A stretch of 34,407 nucleotides of DNA from a virus (Duplodnaviria; Caudoviricetes): IMG/VR virus record IMGVR_UViG_3300011339_000348, positions 1 through 34,407 of that record; one strand, given 5' to 3'. The translations under genes and the position numbers were made by a program. Within the stretch, counting starts at the first letter, position 1; each line of letters starts with the position of its first letter. This document shows positions 2,520-26,742 of this stretch, in pieces. Under the pieces are notes generated by a model. It had not been told where the DNA came from. It was given only the letters and a program-made list of their open reading frames with translations, and made no database searches.

Positions 2520-3704
2520 ATGTTTGTAATTCCAACAGGTGATGACCTAATAACATTCATCAAAGATTTCACAGGATCAACTAATGACGAAGAAATCAAG
2601 AAGTGCATATTTATGGCTGAGCTGAGTATGCGTAACATTGAGCTACCTGCATTACGCAGTGATCCATATGCAGTAGAAAACATTGGGGTAGCAGATGAAA
2701 TGGGACGCATCCCAATTCCAGGTGATATGAACAAACCTATTCTTTTCTTTAAGCAAGGCAGTCAATATACTACAACAGCAACCTGTACAGGCACAATAGG
2801 CACTAACACGATTACATTACAAAGTGCTCCTGCACAGAGTTTACAACCTGGTATGTTTGTTACTGGCACAGGCATTGCACCTGGATGTGTGTTAAACGCT
2901 GTGGGTGGTGGCACTATTGGAAGTGTTCTTACATTAAGTTTGAATAACACAGGCACAGTTAATGGTGAAATTACATTTACCACAGTTGGTAATAGTAGTA
3001 GCCAAACAGGTCCTTGGATTGTTTATGATCGTATTGGTGATAGAGATATTATTACACAGGGTATGATTGCTCAATTATATCTACAGCCAGTAAACGTTCC
3101 AGCAGTTATTCGTGGTAAGTTCAGTGAAGTTTATAACAAATATCAGTTTTTACCATATGTTGCTCAGGGCGATCTTATCAATATGTATTACTACAAAGCG
3201 TGGCCACTATTGTTTGCGCCAGTTGATGATTTACTAATTGACACAACTGCAACTGTTTCAGCAAGTACAGGTACAACTGCAACATTAACGGTAAATGATA
3301 GTAGTAGCGTAATGGTTGGTGACATATTAACAGCAACAGCGGGTGTAGGTGATTTTGGTCCTACCAACAAGGTAACAGTTACACTAGTGCCTACAGGCAC
3401 AACAATTACAATAAGTGGTACTGGCATTAGTGATGGATCAGTAACAGATGTTTACATTACTGACCAAACAGTTCAAAGTAATGCAGTATTACAAACTTGG
3501 GCAGAAGGTTATGTTTATTCAACATTGCGTGAATATTACATCAAACGTCACAATAGTGAAGATGCCGCAGTATACGCACAAAAATATGAGAATGCTTGGA
3601 ACATTGTTGAGGATCAAAACAATCTTGGCAAATGGAGTGGAGGTCACACACGATTGACTTCAGTATGGCAACCAAGACAGTATCGTCAATATAACATCAA
3701 ATAA
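2520..3704 (+). CDS. Head-to-tail adaptor protein with inserted beta-rich domains
   Basis: N-terminal IKKCIFMAELSMRNIEL and C-terminal SNAVLQTWAEGYVYSTLREYY resemble podovirus (SU10-type) adaptors. Two Thr/Gly/Val-rich insertions lengthen it to 394 aa. Confidence 0.7.
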   Translation: MFVIPTGDDLITFIKDFTGSTNDEEIKKCIFMAELSMRNIELPALRSDPYAVENIGVADEMGRIPIPGDMNKPILFFKQGSQYTTTATCTGTIGTNTITLQSAPAQSLQPGMFVTGTGIAPGCVLNAVGGGTIGSVLTLSLNNTGTVNGEITFTTVGNSSSQTGPWIVYDRIGDRDIITQGMIAQLYLQPVNVPAVIRGKFSEVYNKYQFLPYVAQGDLINMYYYKAWPLLFAPVDDLLIDTTATVSASTGTTATLTVNDSSSVMVGDILTATAGVGDFGPTNKVTVTLVPTGTTITISGTGISDGSVTDVYITDQTVQSNAVLQTWAEGYVYSTLREYYIKRHNSEDAAVYAQKYENAWNIVEDQNNLGKWSGGHTRLTSVWQPRQYRQYNIK

Positions 3705-6700: not shown

Positions 6701-7329
6701 GTTTAAGTTTCATTGGTGATAAAACAACAAACAGCAGTTTTAGTTTGTTTAATGCACAGTTCAGTGTGTCAATGAGTAATGTGAATACTACAACTGGTTT
6801 CAGTCCGTTTAGATTCCAACAATATGCACCTACTAGCAGTGAGTTTGGTGATATGTTTATGTATCGTAGCAGAGGTAATAGTTTGGCCAACTCAGCACCA
6901 GTAGTTGCTGGCGATAAAATAATGCAAATCAACTTTATTACTAATAGTAATAATGCTACTTCAAGTGTTGGAGCTTTTAGTTCAAGTATTACATACAATG
7001 ATAATGCTGGCAATGTTGGATCTAAACTTGAATTAAATGCTGTTGGAACTGGTACAACTGGTTATTTAAATGGTCAAATTAATTTATTAGCAAATACAAC
7101 TGCGGCTAATAACTTTACTGCTAACAATGTAACTATCAATAATAGTGTTAATGGCTTTATGAAGTTATCAAGCTATACAGCGGCGGCATTAACAGCAATC
7201 ACTGGAAGTGTTGGTTGGATGGCGGCTGTAACTAATAGTGCTGGTGGTAGTAACCCAAATGGTATGATTGCATTCTGGGACACAACAAATAGTCGTTGGA
7301 GTTATGTCCACGATAATAGTGCTGTATAA
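3715..7329 (+). CDS. Long tail fibre / adhesin
   Basis: 1204 aa, very Asn/Gly/Ala/Thr-rich. Recurrent ANFANYAGNVT...QPNITSVGTL units and a YadA-head-like xIAIG repeat block (LIAIG, SISIG, AIAIG, SIAIG). Confidence 0.8.
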   Translation: MANVSSNNLTTLYSGGGVNVRPTSAYGNANVVALLNAGTDGANTVTNIVATGNITANNINANIVYHNSTGVAIQSNAWAQLQYTNSNVAPADQTNLGTGSWFFVDSSGAAFESNTTGTTHSILFSNSGNVTAENFIGNVVGNITGSANYANYSNIANTANSVSVANVVGIGNIAVINLDGNVSNILHGDGYWGPESGNLNANFANYAGNVTNSAQPNITSVGTLVNVSVTGNITSVSGVFVGNGAGLSNLTGANVNGTVANANYAAYAGNVTIAGQSNITSLGTLTGLSSNGIVDFANAANVNLGSNSNVHIGGGAANYALITDGAGNLSWGQVANALVANFANFAGNVTNSAQPNITSVGTLSNLSVSGNITSGNANLGNLAVANFFSGNGSLLTGIIALSSNFANYAGNLINGTSNVNTNGANGNISVSVNGVANVATFQNNSINLNYAINTPNYIYIGTNSGNRASIKSNLIAIGTNTATLTNVNDTRTIVIGHEAASSLTLATPGSNTIIIGTSAALQSAGDNRVVIGRGAGQAGIANNVVTIGSVAGTWPGDDSISIGTGAGSLLTSQTNAIAIGSGSQAFSNSIAIGGSAQSNVVNSIVLNATGSVLTQTTANTFTVKPVRNVLTGNAMFYNSSTGEISYDVVGNLVAGNANFANFAGNVTVSSQSNITTLGNLLYANVVDSGNVTGTKQQFSPNTITVGTNSTTNASYNLTTLYGLTSNLAEPGSRAIIRSRGNSATPATAQVNDIGSREQVFFYNGTTNAVGFSTQVTLSNLNSNSNAFTTGTTYNLSVGNPNGDQGNTSALSGFNTLQYDATGTLTLLNGAAPAGTGALQQMLLVNYGHTSGNTNAAVGGIVMRRARGNRDANVTVEPNDQLGRVVFGGYNGTIFQTNRTALVRGIVDSSYVGGNANIPIGLQFITCDNTTSYTHNFYANSNVVFATSTTVTANGGFNTTGVVSATGNITGGNLITGNITASGGTYSLSNGAGGATSLSFIGDKTTNSSFSLFNAQFSVSMSNVNTTTGFSPFRFQQYAPTSSEFGDMFMYRSRGNSLANSAPVVAGDKIMQINFITNSNNATSSVGAFSSSITYNDNAGNVGSKLELNAVGTGTTGYLNGQINLLANTTAANNFTANNVTINNSVNGFMKLSSYTAAALTAITGSVGWMAAVTNSAGGSNPNGMIAFWDTTNSRWSYVHDNSAV

Positions 7330-7511
7330 TGGAATTCACACTCAAACAATTAAGTTGGATAGTCATCGGTAGTTTAGGAATCGGTGGCACCGGCTATATG
7401 AGTATGAACAGTAAGATAGATGAACTATCAACTAAGGTCGCTGTCGTGCATACACAGGTATTAACACTCACTAAACAACTTGACCGCATAGAAGAAAAAC
7501 TAACCAAATAA
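7329..7511 (+). CDS. Small membrane protein (one TM helix plus coiled coil), possible holin-like
   Basis: 60 aa with hydrophobic WIVIGSLGIGGTGY followed by heptads ending LDRIEEKL; coupled to the fibre stop codon (TAATG). Confidence 0.5.
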   Translation: MEFTLKQLSWIVIGSLGIGGTGYMSMNSKIDELSTKVAVVHTQVLTLTKQLDRIEEKLTK

Positions 7512-7581: not shown

Positions 7582-8037
7582 ATGGCAAGAGGAAGACCTA
7601 AAGGCAGTAAATCGTTATTAGAACGATTATTAGAACGAGTTATAATCAATGAAGTAACTGATTGTTGGGAATACCAAGGCGGTAAAAACAACATTGGTTA
7701 TGGAATGATACGTGACGAGAAGAAAATGCGAACGACACATCGTGTCAGTTATGAGGAACACAAAGGACCTATACCACCTGGTATGTGCGTTCTACACAAG
7801 TGTGATAATACAATCTGTTGTAATCCCAATCATTTATGGTTAGGCACACTCAAAGACAATACCCAAGATATGATGAGTAAAGGACGTGCTAAACCTTTTG
7901 GTGGGCATTTAGATACTGGTGGAATGAAAGGTAAGAAACAACCAACAACACTTTGCAAGTATTGTAATCGGTTAATGCCAAACAATAGTTATGCAAGATT
8001 TCACGGGGAAAAATGTAAATCTAAACAAATAGAATAA
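7582..8037 (+). CDS. HNH endonuclease (homing-endonuclease type)
   Basis: CWEYQG...GYG...THRVSY...VLHKCDNTICCNPNHLWLGTLKDNTQDM is a canonical HNH motif. N-terminal RGRPKGS and C-terminal CKYC...RFHGEKCK. Confidence 0.92.
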   Translation: MARGRPKGSKSLLERLLERVIINEVTDCWEYQGGKNNIGYGMIRDEKKMRTTHRVSYEEHKGPIPPGMCVLHKCDNTICCNPNHLWLGTLKDNTQDMMSKGRAKPFGGHLDTGGMKGKKQPTTLCKYCNRLMPNNSYARFHGEKCKSKQIE

Positions 8038-8040
8038 ATA
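8035..8040 (+). promoter_or_regulatory. TAAATA motif ahead of a non-coding structured segment
   Basis: gaaTAAATA overlaps the HNH stop; no sizeable ORF follows before the terminator at 8187. Confidence 0.6.
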
Positions 8041-8043
8041 ATT

Positions 8044-8227
8044 GTGTAGTGAGACACCTGAATTGCATATTTCAGTTATCCTATTATCTACGCCATAGAT
8101 AGTTCCTTTAACCCGTCTCACTACACTTTCGTTTAGTTCATAATAAGAAGTTCGTTATCCTGATTAGTTATCGCAATGATAACTTTGAAGCCTCTAAAGT
8201 TTTAGTCATCTTTAGGGGCTTCTTTTT
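8044..8227 (+). ncRNA. Candidate structured small RNA
   Basis: A perfect 12-bp stem (8044-8055/8115-8126) encloses two hairpins. A further hairpin lies at 8166-8184, then a terminator. Bounded by a promoter motif and a U tract. Confidence 0.6.
8187..8227 (+). terminator. Rho-independent terminator
   Basis: gaagcctctaaag-ttttagtcat-ctttaggggcttc-ttttt: 13-bp stem with one G-U pair, then a U tract. Confidence 0.85.
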
Positions 8228-8336
8228 ATCTACCGTGTATGTAGATACACATCCTGGCGAGATATCCAGTTATTTTATTTTCACTCAAAAAACACACAAA
8301 AAACACGGCTGTAGGCGCCTACAACACAACATTTTT

Positions 8337-8393
8337 TGTTGTTTTTATACAACAACAGATTTTTAGATAGAGAACTGTTGTATTTTTACAACC
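8337..8393. promoter_or_regulatory. Two palindromic operator-like sites TGTTGT-N6-ACAAC
   Basis: tgttgtttttatacaaca (8337-8354) and tgttgtatttttacaacc (8376-8393), just upstream of the sigma70 -35 box. Confidence 0.55.
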
Positions 8394-8403
8394 CCAACAA
8401 TAT

Positions 8404-8432
8404 TTGACAAAGAATAAAGGTTATGTTATACT
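8404..8432 (+). promoter_or_regulatory. Sigma70-type early promoter
   Basis: TTGACA (8404-8409), 17-bp spacer, extended TG, TATACT (8427-8432); SD aaggaa and ATG 8461 follow. Confidence 0.85.
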
Positions 8433-8460
8433 TGATGTAACAAACAACTAAAGGAAAGTT

Positions 8461-8949
8461 ATGGCGTCATTAGCAGAAATCAGGGCTCGTATGGGCATTA
8501 TACAAGAAGAAAAACAAAAGGAAGATAAACCAGATCCAATCACTTATGAACAATATAAAGTATGGGATCAACTAAAAAAACCAAATAAGGTGTCCGATGT
8601 AGATGTGAGAATATATCATCATTCGGATAAGTCATTACACAACACATTGGAATGTCCAAAATGTGAAAGTGAGTATATGCACCATATCGGTGTTGAACTA
8701 TTCAACTGTGAAGAGGATGAACCGGGAGAACATATAGAACTATACCTCAAAGAATCATATGGATGGGATATGCTTAATGTAAAATGCCCAGAACATACGG
8801 TAAATAGTGATATGAAAAATAATCCAAGCAAAAGACGTAATGGATTATCCATTTCATTTGTATGTGAAGAATGTCATCATATACTACATTTGGGTATTGC
8901 TCAACATAAAGGTTTAACACAACTTTCTTGGAGCTTTATGAATGGCTAA
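8461..8949 (+). CDS. Early hypothetical protein with two CxxC motifs (Zn ribbon-like)
   Basis: 162 aa containing CPKC and CEEC; first gene after the sigma70 promoter; good SD. Confidence 0.7.
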   Translation: MASLAEIRARMGIIQEEKQKEDKPDPITYEQYKVWDQLKKPNKVSDVDVRIYHHSDKSLHNTLECPKCESEYMHHIGVELFNCEEDEPGEHIELYLKESYGWDMLNVKCPEHTVNSDMKNNPSKRRNGLSISFVCEECHHILHLGIAQHKGLTQLSWSFMNG

Positions 8950-9190
8950 AAACCTAGAACAACATATTAGAGATAGTTTTATTAAACTAAACGAACGTGA
9001 AGAACTATATGAAAGTCACAACTTACATAGTGAAATATTGACTAATCATTTGGAAAAAGAACGAGATAGTTTGCGTAGATTACAGTTTCTATTATATCTA
9101 ACTATGAAAGAGCAATACCCAAATGAAACTATTGATGGGACTACTATGTTTGAGAAATATCTTTTTGAAATAAAGGTCACATTAAAATGA
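8942..9190 (+). CDS. Hypothetical protein
   Basis: 82 aa, overlaps the preceding stop, SD ggag. Confidence 0.65.
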   Translation: MAKNLEQHIRDSFIKLNEREELYESHNLHSEILTNHLEKERDSLRRLQFLLYLTMKEQYPNETIDGTTMFEKYLFEIKVTLK

Positions 9191-9232
9191 CCAAAAAACA
9201 TATGTTTTTTAACGGTTATTTGCTATAATGAC

Positions 9233-9357
9233 TAAATACACTTGTACATATTGACATTTGTATAACACTCCAGTTAGAAACCCCTGATTAGCGTCAGGGC
9301 GTTTCGTCTAAACGCTAATAGATTAAGACTGTAGTACAACATTTAACTGGAACTGAA
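9233..9357 (+). promoter_or_regulatory. TAAATA motif followed by a structured 5' leader
   Basis: gacTAAATA at 9233-9238. Stem 9269-9276/9344-9351 encloses two hairpins with complementary loops. Confidence 0.55.
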
Positions 9358-9663
9358 ATGTATTCAATAGAAGAACTTACCGCACTCAGTGCTGCCACTG
9401 AAACAGAAAACTACGAAAAGAACTATGACTTCTGGTATGTCATAGACCACTTACCCATAGAGGATCTCATTCTCTGGGCAGAACGACTAACAAAAACAAA
9501 ATATCTAAGTAATCACAATGGTGAATATTGGCTAGACCTTATTGATTTAATCAGTATCGCTAAACAACCTATGACTATGATACTCACAAACAAACAAAAA
9601 CGCTATATGTGTATGTTAGTGATTAGTTGCTGGAATGATTTGGAGTGTGATTATGTGTTATGA
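9358..9663 (+). CDS. Hypothetical protein
   Basis: 101 aa ORF overlapping the start of the polymerase-like gene. Confidence 0.65.
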   Translation: MYSIEELTALSAATETENYEKNYDFWYVIDHLPIEDLILWAERLTKTKYLSNHNGEYWLDLIDLISIAKQPMTMILTNKQKRYMCMLVISCWNDLECDYVL

Positions 9664-10753
9664 ACCAAACTACAATGATCCTCGTGTAAGAAAACGCATT
9701 CGTAAAGCACTTGGATTCGTCGGGTCTTGTTTAAGTGAAACAGAACCACACGCCTGGTCAACTCGCTACATAGATAAGCACTTAGGTCATCAAAAAGAAA
9801 ATCTCAGTAAATATCTGAGGTTTAATCTATTATCTTGTGTAAGTGACAGATACAGCAAAGACACAGGTGTATGTAAGAAATACATCAAAAATAAAACGGG
9901 TTATGATTTGGTCAATAATCTACTGAATAACATAACTCAATACCCTAGTGTGTCGGAAGTCGGACTAATACAAGATTGGGTCAAAACAGAATACAAGAAC
10001 GAACTATCTACATTAGATTTCACCTATGATGATAAGTCACATAGATTGTGGCACCCATTACAGCGTGTAAAAAAGCAATATAAAAAAGAAGTTTTTACTG
10101 AAGTGGGTCTCAAATATCAATACGATATAGAATGTTGTGCTCCTACTCTTATACATCAGTTTAGTCAAAAGATACCCGAAATACTACAAGATAACAAATA
10201 CATACAAGGCCCTATGGATTTGTATCTATTCGCACTTAGAAGTTATCTTAAAGACCGTAAATCAATAAGAACTATGTTAGCAACTGAAGCCGAGATACCT
10301 GAGGGTCATATCAAAGTAATCATCAACGCATTACTTGCGGGTGCTCATTTAACTAATAACAAAGATAGCGATATCTATAAACTACTTGGTGGAGATAAGG
10401 CACGCATAGAATATCTTAAACAACACCCATATCTATTAGAACTACGTAGTGATATCAAGACCTGCTGGGATTACATCAAACAAGTATTACCTCGCAGGAG
10501 TGTCGTCAATAAGAACAATAAAACTCAAATGCTACCCATATCAAGTAAGCAAAAAGCAAATACATATTTTCAGTTAGAACGACTTGTATTAGAACAAGTA
10601 GTTGATTTTATGAAGCAATCAGGTGATATACAATATTTTCTGGAACACGACGGGTGGGTATGTAATAAACAACTCAATGAAGAACTACTGATTAAATGGA
10701 TAAAAGATAAAACGGGTTATGATATTCAACTGGATATGGTTGTTCTTGTATAA
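9653..10753 (+). CDS. Minimal family-A-polymerase-like protein (putative replication protein)
   Basis: Start re-called at ATG 9653 (SD ggag at 9642). Ordered motifs RLWHPLQ, YDIECCAP (A-like), KVIINALLAG (B-like), FQLE and LEHDGW (C-like). No exonuclease domains. Confidence 0.55.
   Translation: MCYEPNYNDPRVRKRIRKALGFVGSCLSETEPHAWSTRYIDKHLGHQKENLSKYLRFNLLSCVSDRYSKDTGVCKKYIKNKTGYDLVNNLLNNITQYPSVSEVGLIQDWVKTEYKNELSTLDFTYDDKSHRLWHPLQRVKKQYKKEVFTEVGLKYQYDIECCAPTLIHQFSQKIPEILQDNKYIQGPMDLYLFALRSYLKDRKSIRTMLATEAEIPEGHIKVIINALLAGAHLTNNKDSDIYKLLGGDKARIEYLKQHPYLLELRSDIKTCWDYIKQVLPRRSVVNKNNKTQMLPISSKQKANTYFQLERLVLEQVVDFMKQSGDIQYFLEHDGWVCNKQLNEELLIKWIKDKTGYDIQLDMVVLV
9927..9965 (+). repeat. 39-bp direct repeat, copy 1
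   Basis: ataacataactcaataccctagtgtgtcggaagtcggac; 37/39 identical to 10750-10788. Confidence 0.92.
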
Positions 10754-14435: not shown

Positions 14436-17400
14436 ATGGCATACAATAATAAACCAATAAGTCCGCAACAACTCGCAATGATGGGTCGTGATGGCGACAC
14501 AATGTTAGCACACATCAACGAAACTGAAGCAGAGATGTTAAAAAGAATGGGTGGTCGTGGCACCATCAATCCTATGACAGGCTTGCCAGAGTTTGCGTTC
14601 AGTGACGATTGGTGGAATGTTAGCCAAGACTATGGTAGTGGTGATTTTTATGATAACGATACCGGTGGCGGCCTTGGTGGTATAGATACTGGTGGCGGTG
14701 GTACTGTTGATACCGGAGGTGGTGGTGTAGTTGATACCGGAGGTGGTGGTGTAGTTGATACCGGCCCTATCATACCAGATAATACACCAATAGACACCGG
14801 TCCTAGTCAAGCAGATATATTAGCACAACAGCAAGCAGATGCATTAGCGGCACAACAAGCAAATGATGCGGCAGCCGCGGCACAACAAGCATATTGGCAA
14901 CAACAAGCAGACGCACAACAAGCAGAATGGCAACGTTTAGCAGATGAACGTGATGCAGCCGCACGTGCCGCTAATGAAGCATTATGGGCACAGCAAGCAA
15001 GAGATGCCCAAATAGCCGCAGACGCTGCCGCAAGTGTTATACCCGGCAACTCAACATTGATACAAGATTATGTTGGTAACACTGTGGGCAGTATAAACAA
15101 TGGAACAAATACAAACAGTATTACAGTGATCCCGGGTAGTGGCAATACAAACACAACAGTAACAGGTGCAGTCACGCCGGGTGAGATTACAACAGGTAAC
15201 ATCACAGATACAACAGGATTAGATACAGGTCCTGTCATTCCTACTGATACGATAACAGGTGGAACTGGAACAACAGTTGTAGATACAACTGGTGGCACAA
15301 CTGGATCAGTATCACCAACTGATTTAGTCAATAACGATTTTACAGATGGTGCTAATAGTGGTTACACGCAAGCACAATTAAACACAGTGGCAGACTTTGC
15401 TAATAAGATAGACCAAATCAATAGTCAGCCAGGAGTTCAAGTAGCGTTCGCCCCATTAGTATTGTTAGCAGATATCGTAGCGCACGGTATTGCAATAGCG
15501 TTGGCAGCATTATGGAATCCAACAAGTGGCTTAACAGACGAGCAGGCAAAAAATGCCGCGATTGCTACGGTTAAGTTATTGAATGATCCTAACATTGATA
15601 GAGATGCTTTCAATAAGGCTACTGGACAAAGTGTGTCTGATGATATGTTTAATCAACTTAAAATAGGCGCCGCTGATCCTGCATTAGAACAAGAAGTTGC
15701 TACAATCGTTATCACTGGAAAGCGTGATACTAATATTGTATTAGATGATAAAACACCCGTAGTAATAGGTGGCACATACACACCGCCAGGTGGAACTAAT
15801 GTTCCTGATGGTGGAGGAGGCAATACAGGTGCTACTGGTGCAGTCGCCGGAGCAAGTAGTGCTGTAGGAGCAAGTAGTGCTGTAGGTGCAAGTAGTGCTG
15901 TAGGTGCAAGTAGTGCTGTAGGTGCAAGTAGTGCGGCATCAAGCGATGATAGCCCGGGTGCATCTTACGCTAGAAACAATCAAGGTATGGATGCATACTA
16001 CGAAGCCATTAGAGCATTTATGGCAACTAACCCAAGCGCAGCCGCACTCGCTGAAGCAATGGGAACATATGGTGTAAGTCAAAAAGATATTGATGCGGCA
16101 TTGAAACTAACTACAGGAGCGAGTGGAGCAACTACAGCCGCAACCGGAGCAACTGGTGCAGCCAGTGGTGCTACTGGAGCCGCAACAGGTGCAACAAGTG
16201 GAGCATCAGGTGTAGTAGGTGCTACAGGAACAGAAGGAGCAACAGGTCCTACAGTTGGAGCAACCGGTGGAGCGACAAGTGCCGCAAGTGGTGCAACTTC
16301 AGCCGCATCTGGTGCCACAGGAGCCGCGTCGGGAGCAAGTGCAGCCAGTGGTGCAAGTGCCGCAAGTGGATCAACAGGTGCAGCCAGCGGTGCGACAGGA
16401 ACAGTTGGTGCTTCGGGCACGGTTGGTGCTTCGGGCACGGTTGGCGCAAGTGGAACAGTAGGGGCATCAGGAACAGTAGGTGCAAGTGGCACAGTTGGTG
16501 CAAGTGGAACAGTAGGTGCATCAGGAACAGTAGGTGCAAGTGGAACAGTAGGTGCATCAGGAACCGTGGGAGCATCCGGAAGTAGTGGAGCAAGTGGAGC
16601 ATCCGGAAGTAGTGGAGCAAGTGGTTCATCAGGTAGTTCGGGAGCATCAGGTAGCAGTGGAGCAAGTGGTTCATCAGGTGCATCAGGTAGTTCGGGAGCA
16701 TCAGGTAGCAGTGGAGCAAGTGGTTCATCAGGAGCATCAGGATCTAGCGGTGCTTCGGGTAGTTCAGGTGCTAGTGGATCGTCAGGAGCGTCTGGCTCAA
16801 GTGGTGCATCTGGTGCATCAGGATCACGTGGAGCATCAGGATCTAGTGGCGCTTCGGGTAGTTCGGGAGCATCAGCCGCAACCGGAGCAAGTGCGGCAAC
16901 AGGTGCATCAGCCGCTACTGGAGCAAGCGCGGCAACAGGTGCAAGTGCCGCAACAGGTGCAACAACATATACGCCAACGAACTTAGGTTACTTGAATCCT
17001 GGATTCATTAGACCTACACCGTTCTATAATACTAATGCACCAGAACAAAGTAAGTTCTTCTGGGGACAACACGCATTTCAGCCAGGACCTGTCTTTAATC
17101 CTACATTGTATAATACACAACCAGAAGCACCTAACACACCATATGGCATACAACAAATGGCTCGCCCATTAACAATGCAAGAAATCAATGATATGATATT
17201 GGGCAAGACAAGTAAAGCACAAACTGTTGCACCCGCGACACGTGCTGTTCCAATTACTGATTATAACCGTAATGTTATGAATACTGACTACAGCAAAGTT
17301 GGACAACTACCAGTCATAGCACCAGTAGCGCCAAGTCAAGTAGCACCAACAACATCAGTGTCACCTGTCAATGCTGAAATCGCAAGACAGTTAGGTAGTA

Positions 17401-22692: not shown

Positions 22693-23814
22693 ATGAGATT
22701 TCATATATTGGGCTTGCCCCACACAGTAACAAGTAAAGAATATGTCGCTTGCGCTTACACACAAAAAGTGTGGAAGTTTGGTAAGATGATGAAAAAGTTA
22801 GGGCACGAAATAATACATTATGGTCACGCTGATAGTGATGTGATTTGTGATGAACACGTTACCGTTATTGACAACGGTGATTTACAAAAAGCATATGGTT
22901 CATACGACTGGCGTAAAAACTTCTTTAAGTTTGACAACAACGACCACGCTTACACTACATTTTTCTCTAACGCTATAAGAGAAGTAGGCAAAAGAAAACA
23001 AAAAAACGATTTTATACTACCATTCTGGGGATCAGGAGTAAAACCTATCTGTGATGCTCATACAGATATGATATGTGTAGAGCCAGGCATTGGATATGCT
23101 GGTGGTCATTTCGCAAAATGGAAGATATTTGAAAGTTATGCTATCTATCACGCCTATTGTGGCTTACAAAATGTAGGTAGTTGTAATCAAGGATGGTATG
23201 ATGTTGTTATTCCAAACTATTTTGACCCAGATGATTTTACATACAAAGATGTAAAGCAAGATTACTTCTTATTCTTGGGTAGAGTGTATGAAGGTAAGGG
23301 TATTCATATCGTCAATCAAATAGCAGAGAAGTTACCACATATCAATGTTGTTGTTGCAGGACAGAATCCAGACAATATCAAGTTTCCTGACAACGTATTG
23401 TTTGCTGGTTATGCTGATACAGAGACACGCAGAGAACTAATGGCTAATGCTAAGGGTGCGTTCGTTCCCAGTCAGTATGTAGAGCCATTTGGTGGCGTTC
23501 AAATAGAACTATTGATGAGTGGCACACCTACAATCACAACAGATTGGGGAAGTTTCGCAGAGAACAACATTCACGGAGTCACTGGATATCGTTGTAGAAC
23601 ATTTGAGCAATTCTTATGGGCTACAGAGAACATAGAAAATATTAAACCAAAAGATTGTAGAACTTGGGCAGAGAACTACACATTAGACAAAGTAGCCCCA
23701 ATGTATGAGGAATACTTTCAAAGCATATTAAACATACATACAGGCAATGGATGGTATGAGCCTAATGATAAAAGAACCAATTTAGATTGGTTAAAGAAAG
23801 ATTATCCTAAATAA
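22693..23814 (+). CDS. Glycosyltransferase (GT-B, family 4-like)
   Basis: VIPNYFD, YFLFLGRV..GKG and EPFGGVQIE (ExFG-x4-E) followed by SGTPTITTDWG...G.TG. Confidence 0.92.
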   Translation: MRFHILGLPHTVTSKEYVACAYTQKVWKFGKMMKKLGHEIIHYGHADSDVICDEHVTVIDNGDLQKAYGSYDWRKNFFKFDNNDHAYTTFFSNAIREVGKRKQKNDFILPFWGSGVKPICDAHTDMICVEPGIGYAGGHFAKWKIFESYAIYHAYCGLQNVGSCNQGWYDVVIPNYFDPDDFTYKDVKQDYFLFLGRVYEGKGIHIVNQIAEKLPHINVVVAGQNPDNIKFPDNVLFAGYADTETRRELMANAKGAFVPSQYVEPFGGVQIELLMSGTPTITTDWGSFAENNIHGVTGYRCRTFEQFLWATENIENIKPKDCRTWAENYTLDKVAPMYEEYFQSILNIHTGNGWYEPNDKRTNLDWLKKDYPK

Positions 23815-26293: not shown

Positions 26294-26593
26294 ATGTTAT
26301 CAACAAAAAACTTACAAGCCAAACCAATCAATCAAAAGCGCGGTCCTACAACAGGTAATGCTGGTACACCAACTAAGCGTAATGATTTTATGGATGCTAA
26401 ATCTACTAGTTCAGGCGAAAAAGCAACACTAGCTAAAATGGTTACAGACGCACTTGAAATGCGTGGTCGTGGTCAAGCAGGAACTGTTAATCCAGCATTA
26501 GAAGGTGTCAGTAGCAATACTAATACAGGTCCTAAAAAGAACTCTACAGCAGATGGTGCTAAACTACCAAGCAAATACAAGTCACCAAAATGA
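26294..26593 (+). CDS. Hypothetical basic protein
   Basis: 99 aa; SD aagga; contains RGPTTGN, similar to the motif in ORF 24720. Confidence 0.65.
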   Translation: MLSTKNLQAKPINQKRGPTTGNAGTPTKRNDFMDAKSTSSGEKATLAKMVTDALEMRGRGQAGTVNPALEGVSSNTNTGPKKNSTADGAKLPSKYKSPK

Positions 26594-26742
26594 TGACTAA
26601 AACTGTTAAGCCAAAAGTAACTAAAAAATCTGCAACTAAAACTGTTGCACCTAGTAAGTTCAAAAAGCCTAATCGCCCAAATCCTGGTAGGTCAGGCCCA
26701 GCAGGACAAAAAGGTGCATTAGGCGCAACTAGCGGCTACTGA
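26590..26742 (+). CDS. Small Lys-rich protein (50 aa; not in ORF track)
   Basis: ATGA overlap; MMTKTVKPKVTKKSATKTVAPSKFKKPNRPNPGRSGPAGQKGALGATSGY. Confidence 0.55.
   Translation: MMTKTVKPKVTKKSATKTVAPSKFKKPNRPNPGRSGPAGQKGALGATSGY

Follow-up and report, generated by a model that had tools for sequence, protein, structure and literature searches.

The window analysed here is a complete phage record of 34,407 bases with direct terminal repeats, whose structural genes (capsid, portal, terminase and tail) are P22-like. Comparison of its DNA with cultured phages returned matches at chance level only and no close relative, and the sole cultured relative of its capsid protein is a distant 42-kb record. 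The PHROG scan took in 36 window proteins, leaving aside ORFs 24574 and ~33690, and the annotation of 16 window proteins rests on PHROG without Pfam. The element of interest lies downstream of a gene for an HNH endonuclease and comprises, together with its neighbours, the following features:

7329..7511, plus strand: gene for a 60-aa holin/spanin-like protein (PHROG 739, E 7e-5), a positional marker of the RNA
7582..8037, plus strand: HNH endonuclease gene upstream of the RNA, optional and missing before several homologues
8035..8040, plus strand: T4-type late promoter box TAAATA, the top intergenic hexamer, invariant in 17/17 aligned homologues
8044..8126, plus strand: P1 closing stem around arms A and B, in which the 5' end would be buried
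8058..8082, plus strand: arm A hairpin with a UUGCAU loop (CAU at 8066-8068), which reads AGGA...AUG CAA
8083..8110, plus strand: arm B hairpin with an ACGCCAU loop (CAU at 8094-8096), which reads UAAAGGAA...AUG GCG U
8166..8184, plus strand: accessory hairpin with a GCAA(U) loop, found only in some homologues, where it covaries
8187..8227, plus strand: intrinsic terminator, whose loop UUUUAGUCAU (8200-8209) forms arm T and reads AUG ACU AAA A
8404..8949, plus strand: sigma70 promoter (8404-8432) and ORF 8461, a possible secondary own target of arm B

A preliminary description of this region, made from the sequence alone, had placed in it a TAAATA box, a 12-bp stem, three CAT triplets in hairpin loops and a terminator, and all of these elements are found where it located them: the box at 8035-8040, overlapping the stop codon of the HNH gene, the perfect 12-bp stem at 8044-8055/8115-8126, the CAT triplets at 8066-8068, 8094-8096 and 8207-8209, and the terminator, whose U tail extends to 8227. 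The reverse-complement read-outs that it gave for the arms are likewise correct. Positions 8035-8227 fold strongly (-56.5 kcal/mol, z -7.68, equalled by 0/200 shuffles), forming a 12-bp closing stem that encloses two hairpins and is followed by an accessory hairpin and the terminator. Arms A and B each possess an unpaired linker complementary to a Shine-Dalgarno (SD) sequence, GUUAUCCU at 8075-8082 and UUCCUUUA at 8103-8110, whereas arm T has no adjacent anti-SD. The start of the RNA is predicted at ~8044-8046, based on the T4 promoter-to-start spacing. Among the covariance models of 4,227 Rfam families, none matched at the gathering threshold; the best match on the RNA scored 25.8 bits, compared with the 55 required, and a search for C4 RNA gave no match at E values up to 5. 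The one RNA sequencing run that was found (share 0.07) has no cover of positions 8040-9500. Two other readings of the locus were rejected, namely a HEARO-like partnership of the RNA with the HNH gene, because the RNA directly follows the holin-like gene in several genomes that lack the HNH gene at this place, and a CsrB-like RNA presenting GGA motifs on the minus strand, because promoter and terminator both face the plus strand.

To collect homologous loci, we searched with a loop pattern, with the capsid protein and with the 60-aa gene that precedes the RNA, and retrieved 31 related records. A detector that demanded TAAATA, the long stem and the terminator identified 36 distinct homologues in 25/32 genomes, with a variant recognised by eye in two more (G032 and G034). 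Scanning for the P1-stem pattern mostly produced chance matches, with three true loci among those fetched, and was discarded as a source of homologues. The carriers are small podo- and siphophages, and in each of them the RNA lies downstream of TAAATA, with P1 beginning 1-6 nt past the box in 32 of the 36 cases. The homologues have a median folding z of -5.7 (range -8.2 to -3.2), and the sequence of P1 varies widely among them, yet its two strands remain complementary. When six aligned sequences were compared, using a structure derived from those same sequences, 13/37 pairs had changed on both sides, a level reached in 0/500 column shuffles and far above that of slid controls. Conservation is higher in the loops and linkers than in the stems. 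In the 17 aligned 5' domains, the GCAU of the arm A loop and the GCC of the arm B loop show no variation and the UCC linkers almost none; among all 36 homologues, which are related so that the counts are not independent, 22 contain [U/C]GCAU, 23 contain GCCAU and 19 share an identical terminator loop core while the stems covary. By comparison, a CAU in the loop is seen in only three of 65 other terminator-like hairpins of the carriers, and AGUCAU in none. Loops that stay constant while their stems drift have the look of antisense seeds, and the 36 homologues, the covarying stems and the fixed loops support the earlier proposal of a late, structured, multi-arm antisense RNA that faces SD-plus-AUG regions.

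The RNA is also present in a lineage of siphophages (G008, G010, G018, G021, G028 and G037) for which there is no detectable capsid or terminase match to the window phage. Its occurrence in phages with two unrelated virion types points to a common target outside these phages. Apart from its unrelated virion module, the siphophage lineage has the promoter box, the holin-like gene, Dps, several small genes and the RNA in common with the podophages.

TAAATA has 14 intergenic copies in the window genome, compared with one of TATTTA. It precedes most structural genes and lies on the minus strand ahead of the sole minus-strand gene; in the 32 genomes, it occurs 573 times on the coding strand and 166 times in reverse. 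Judged by this core sequence and its placement on the coding strand before structural genes, the box is a T4-type late promoter. The T4 late system (TATAAATA, gp55/gp33/gp45) has the same core box before structural genes, and the jumbo T4-like phages sampled here possess the same late-sigma family (PHROG 12791 in 9/9 records tested). In contrast to the T4 situation, the small phages carry the box in genomes with no detectable sigma: PHROG 12791 is found in 0/30 of them, 19 of which are at least 90% complete, and neither a sigma factor nor an endolysin nor an integrase was matched among the 36 window proteins (PHROG) or 125 representatives of other families (Pfam). In the relatives, there are only genes of the primase/helicase type or with a weak resemblance to polymerases. 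The box would therefore have to be read in trans, from which we infer that the small phages depend on a helper phage, although they may encode a promoter factor of their own that has so far gone unrecognised.

Jumbo phages are plausible in this role. ATAAATA and a gp55-like sigma have been described in the jumbo phages CBB and GAP32 (PMC5259590). Our jumbo sample was drawn via capsid and tail-tube motifs rather than from co-infections, and includes one complete candidate helper, G099, in which the late sigma is encoded at 50199-51053 and TAAATA precedes 110/457 ORFs, compared with 23 in reverse. Dps, holin-like and several small genes are common to jumbo and small phages, and the 60-aa gene is linked to the candidate helper subgroup in that G099 and G100 are the sole jumbo loci with homologues of it, located two genes away from a gene whose product starts with MTKKL. 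A scan of genome collections for the host yielded nothing usable beyond three short MAG contigs, none of them suitable as host. Two further observations concern the gene content of these phages. A ~95-aa MARPKP protein has homologues in 8 small phages (e.g. G044 3279-3587) and in 6/7 jumbo records analysed, and is a candidate helper-interference or activation factor. In addition, the late sigma gene of two jumbo records is split inside an open frame of 615-643 codons (G078 197766-199568 and G114 162714-164399), probably by an intein.

The preliminary description had named three early or other genes of the phage itself as targets. When the arms were compared with 39 own start regions and shuffled controls, two of these assignments stood in the window genome and one fell. 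Arm B (its arm 2) pairs with ORF 8461 at -20.3 kcal/mol, as did 0/300 plain shuffles (p 0.01 with CAU and UCCU fixed), and the terminator loop pairs with ORF 26590 at -18.3 kcal/mol (p 0.003; 0/300 shuffles). The underlying 13-nt match of 8198-8210 to 26592-26604 is correct and represents the longest antisense match in the genome, bar the RNA's own stem. Arm A (its arm 1), by contrast, pairs with ORF 9358 at -14.5 kcal/mol, which is at chance level (p 0.26 and 0.31). None of the three genes qualifies as a conserved target, since ORFs 8461, 9358 and 26590 are present in just 2, 2 and 5 of 32 genomes. In G004, the loop persists while the 26590 start has changed and lost the match, and G002 (99% complete) retains both loops and has neither gene. 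Ranked against one another in genomes of at least 29 kb (11 for arm A, 13 for arm B and 11 for arm T), the arms showed no better fit to the starts of the genome from which they come than to those of other genomes (mean rank 0.45 for A, 0.49 for B and 0.62 for T, with 0.5 expected); a self fit with p <=0.05 was obtained in 0/11, 4/13 and 3/11 genomes, respectively.

These results weigh against the idea that the RNA serves to turn off early genes of the phage itself at a late stage (8461, 26590 and, in some relatives, a downstream MTKTYTV gene). In its favour, apart from the two pairings that beat shuffles, one of the arms fits a variable gene adjacent to the RNA in the window genome and in G004, G006, G013 and G038. 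The own MTKTYTV/MIKTYTV gene fits arm T over 10-11 nt in G038, G013 and G006, and a variant arm-A linker in G006 matches the ribosome-binding site of this gene; no shorter homologues of the MTKTYTV protein turned up when we searched for them. The strongest own pairing, however, may have a different origin. The first 10 residues of ORF 8461 equal the N-terminus of the jumbo-phage single-stranded DNA-binding protein gp32 (SSB), while the remainder is unrelated and Cys-rich, so that this start appears captured from a jumbo gp32 gene, and arm B may match ORF 8461 because the latter carries the gp32 start. Overall, we consider an own switch-off unlikely as the main function, with a secondary role in own-gene control being possible. 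As an observation in its own right, the start of ORF 8461 (window 8461-8493) could either stem from such a capture or represent a peptide mimic interfering with the SSB of the helper.

Turning to jumbo phages, we ranked 40 gene families (1,094 starts) by their fit to the loops, and each arm proved to have a preferred family. Arm T ranked the MTKKL gene (PHROG 16202) first for 20/22 distinct sequences, arm B the tail sheath gene for 29/32 picks, about four of them pattern mis-picks, and arm A, in the broad jumbo sample, a gp15-like gene for 18/19 variants. The loop UUUUUAGUCAU pairs over 11 nt with 11/37 MTKKL starts compared with 19/3,255 others, and the loop UAAUGCCAU, found in variants of arm B, pairs over 9 nt with 17/55 sheath starts compared with 11/3,237 others. 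Some loop variants differ only at a synonymous base (ACT/ACC; GCA/GCT/GCG). An SD is present in all 57/57 sheath genes but only in 7/42 MTKKL genes, 20/42 of which have the promoter box 4-5 nt before the ATG. The linkers conform to this distribution, as the anti-SD of arm B faces an SD-bearing target and arm T, which has no anti-SD, faces one that is mostly SD-less. The MTKKL gene lies upstream of terL on the same strand, at a distance of 1.3-4.7 kb, in 17/17 loci containing both genes, and 45 kb away in G099. Its product (~160 aa, helical) was also considered as a possible counterpart of the T4 small terminase gp16, for which the comparison with gp16 gave an hhalign probability of 0.1 and the fold matches were to coiled coils only.

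For arm A, the candidate target was changed after the data had been seen. The gp15 protein of the G099 subgroup starts with MAQ or MAS rather than MQ, and because of this mismatch gp15 was demoted. The same subgroup encodes an 81-aa virion protein (PHROG 11854) that has an MQ start and its own TAAATA; averaging over 19 arm-A variants puts its gene at rank 1 of 428 G099 starts, and 9/19 of these variants place it at rank 1 of the 44 starts in G100. Based on these sequence matches, PHROG 11854 is the best candidate target of arm A, with gp15-like as the alternative. A set of 120 loci was not used as evidence because it had been selected by a pattern that contained the arm-A match.

In the subgroup nearest G099, whose five nearest fragments make for small counts, a full fit is seen for 3/5 MTKKL starts and 4/5 sheath starts. 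Taken singly, each loop-to-target fit is modest. When loops are copied from arbitrary gene starts, they match the family-level fit of arm T in 3.6-5.3% of cases and that of arm B in 9.6-12.2%, and permutation of the window's three loops gives p values of 0.385, 0.387 and 0.099. Arm B of the window requires a GCG second codon, and pairs over 7 nt with 1/55 sheath starts (p 0.096) and 0/26 gp32 starts. Within G099, the MTKKL start is mismatched (rank 78 of 428), the 81-aa gene takes 10th place for the window's arm A by itself and the sheath 14th place for its arm B; for the arm B variants, a 138-aa late gene comes first, with gp32 in second and the sheath in eighth place. The preliminary description had proposed that the RNA blocks own, host or helper mRNAs. 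While its named own targets fail as conserved ones, the helper option is the best supported of the three, given that the loops fit jumbo late genes.

We therefore consider it moderately probable that the element is a satellite-type antisense RNA directed against the assembly genes of a co-infecting jumbo T4-like helper, and that it is made probably only when the late sigma of this helper is present. The gp55-like sigma of the helper would fire the TAAATA boxes of the small phage, yielding both its virion genes and the RNA, so that the latter would appear alongside the late mRNAs of the helper. P1 and the terminator would protect the two ends of the RNA, and each loop would first contact the AUG and codons 2-4 of a target, after which a UCCU linker would cover the SD. 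Arm A would meet the gene for the 81-aa virion protein and arm B genes with an AAAGGA-ATGGC start, specifically the tail sheath in the case of the UAAUGCCAU variants and possibly gp32 or the 138-aa late gene in the case of the window's variant. Arm T would need no anti-SD, since its MTKKL target is mostly SD-less and often starts 4-5 nt past the promoter box. As a result, helper assembly would stall, and the small phage, equipped with its own capsid, tail and terminase, could package itself. It is tempting to go one step further and regard many virion-complete small podo- and siphophages as obligate parasites of jumbo T4-like phages, with the helper late sigma as their sole trigger and a retargetable RNA that devotes one seed loop to each helper assembly gene. 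Such phages would shut down the head, tail and packaging functions of the helper while their own virions form, as a bacterial equivalent of virophages that is armed with an RNA, a joint reading that we advance tentatively and to which we give slightly less than an even chance.

Loops conserved across two lineages demand an outside target, but this target could also lie in a shared host, such that the RNA would silence conserved host mRNAs with AAGGA ribosome-binding sites and MQ, MA or MTK starts. We think this decidedly unlikely, as the sigma counts and T4 biology imply that a late-sigma promoter would fire only after the jumbo phage has taken over, and the loops fit jumbo late genes. Slightly less probable still is the notion that the loops are protein-binding sites, or that anti-SD and CAU together form a decoy that titrates many mRNAs non-specifically. 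Arm B indeed fits many AAAGGA-ATGGC genes about equally well, and GUUAUCCU recurs at several positions in the family. However, three distinct read-outs of codons 2 to 4 are each fixed, some variants track synonymous codons, and the only arm lacking an anti-SD faces the SD-less class of targets. Finally, the RNA could be aimed at rival small phages that use the same helper, for instance at siphophage capsid genes (AAAGGAAAA-ATGGCTTAT), given that promoter and module are common to both lineages and that the siphophage capsid start is the best own match of arm B in G008 (p 0.016). Since the siphophages have the same arm B and would thus strike their own capsid gene, and since arms A and T show no such match, this option appears very improbable.

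An antisense RNA of the satellite type, acting on helper assembly genes, would have parallels in several known systems. Phage satellites such as P4, PICI, cf-PICI and PLE are small elements timed by their helper, and PLE is a chromosomal satellite that relies on virion parts of phage ICP1. The carriers described here resemble these elements in the small primase/helicase-type replication module of the relatives (DUF5906, DUF3987 or VapE) and in the inferred timing by a helper. They differ in that they encode a full virion, show no integrase and would borrow transcription and perhaps lysis instead of structural components. The C4 RNAs of P1/P7 and the CI RNA of P4 are antisense RNAs in which a closing stem encloses inner hairpins and more than one seed is present, an architecture similar to that seen here, although they target the immunity transcripts of the phage itself. 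The closest known case is SviR of the V. cholerae PLE satellites, a small RNA that is reported to be conserved across elements, lowers translation of the late helper gene ICP1 gp120, is predicted to cover the gp120 ribosome-binding site and also has own targets (bioRxiv 10.1101/2022.04.08.487710). The present RNA would act likewise, without necessarily being related to SviR. PLE is a satellite element, whereas the carriers here are phages of 33-40 kb that encode capsid, portal, terminase and tail themselves, and it is the RNA described here that has three CAU loops and separate anti-SD linkers behind a T4-type late promoter. In the literature searched, which contained few subscription papers, SviR was the sole satellite small RNA found to act on a helper, and nothing relevant emerged on a satellite using T4 late promoters or on a multi-loop RNA of this kind. 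A further paper, PMC12619734, proved unrelated, judging by its abstract.

If true, the dependence on a helper would explain why many small uncultured phages have T4 late promoters without a sigma, identifying them as parasites of jumbo phages rather than autonomous entities, and would change both the counting of such genomes and their assignment to hosts. Moreover, the loop read-outs could pair a small phage with its helper from sequence alone, and the scaffold, with its closing stem, CAU loops, anti-SD linkers and terminator-loop seed, would constitute a natural design for multi-target antisense RNAs.

Several minor observations relate to other parts of the window. TAAATA lies 5-6 nt ahead of the start codon at 1921, 11019, 23819, 24177 and 24563, which suggests that the late mRNAs of such genes are leaderless, as in jumbo phages. 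For the 372-aa protein of ORF 9635 (window 9635-10753), neither Pfam nor PHROG nor PDB returned a match, and a DNA_pol_A lead scored just 0.77. Like a protein of locus L055 (4671-6413; PHROG DNA polymerase, E 0.005), it contains motifs resembling those of family-A polymerases, and its gene occupies the slot where relatives have a primase together with DUF5906, DUF3987 or VapE helicases. A glycosyltransferase encoded at 22693-23814 shares ~68-71% identity with those of the T4-like cyanophages S-CAM7 and ACG-2014f, and a 1,024-aa virion protein contains long tandem peptide repeats of the GAS/GAT type (window 16090-16950). Lastly, a second conserved structured leader driven by TAAATA precedes replication-type genes at 9233-9357 and is also found in G002, G004, G033 and the loci L224, L226, L228, L242 and L258. 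Its hairpin loop, AGCG in the window and GACA, GACG or GATAG elsewhere, is complementary in the window to a downstream CGCT and co-varies with this downstream stretch, an arrangement that resembles a pseudoknot or conformational switch closing over the ribosome-binding site.
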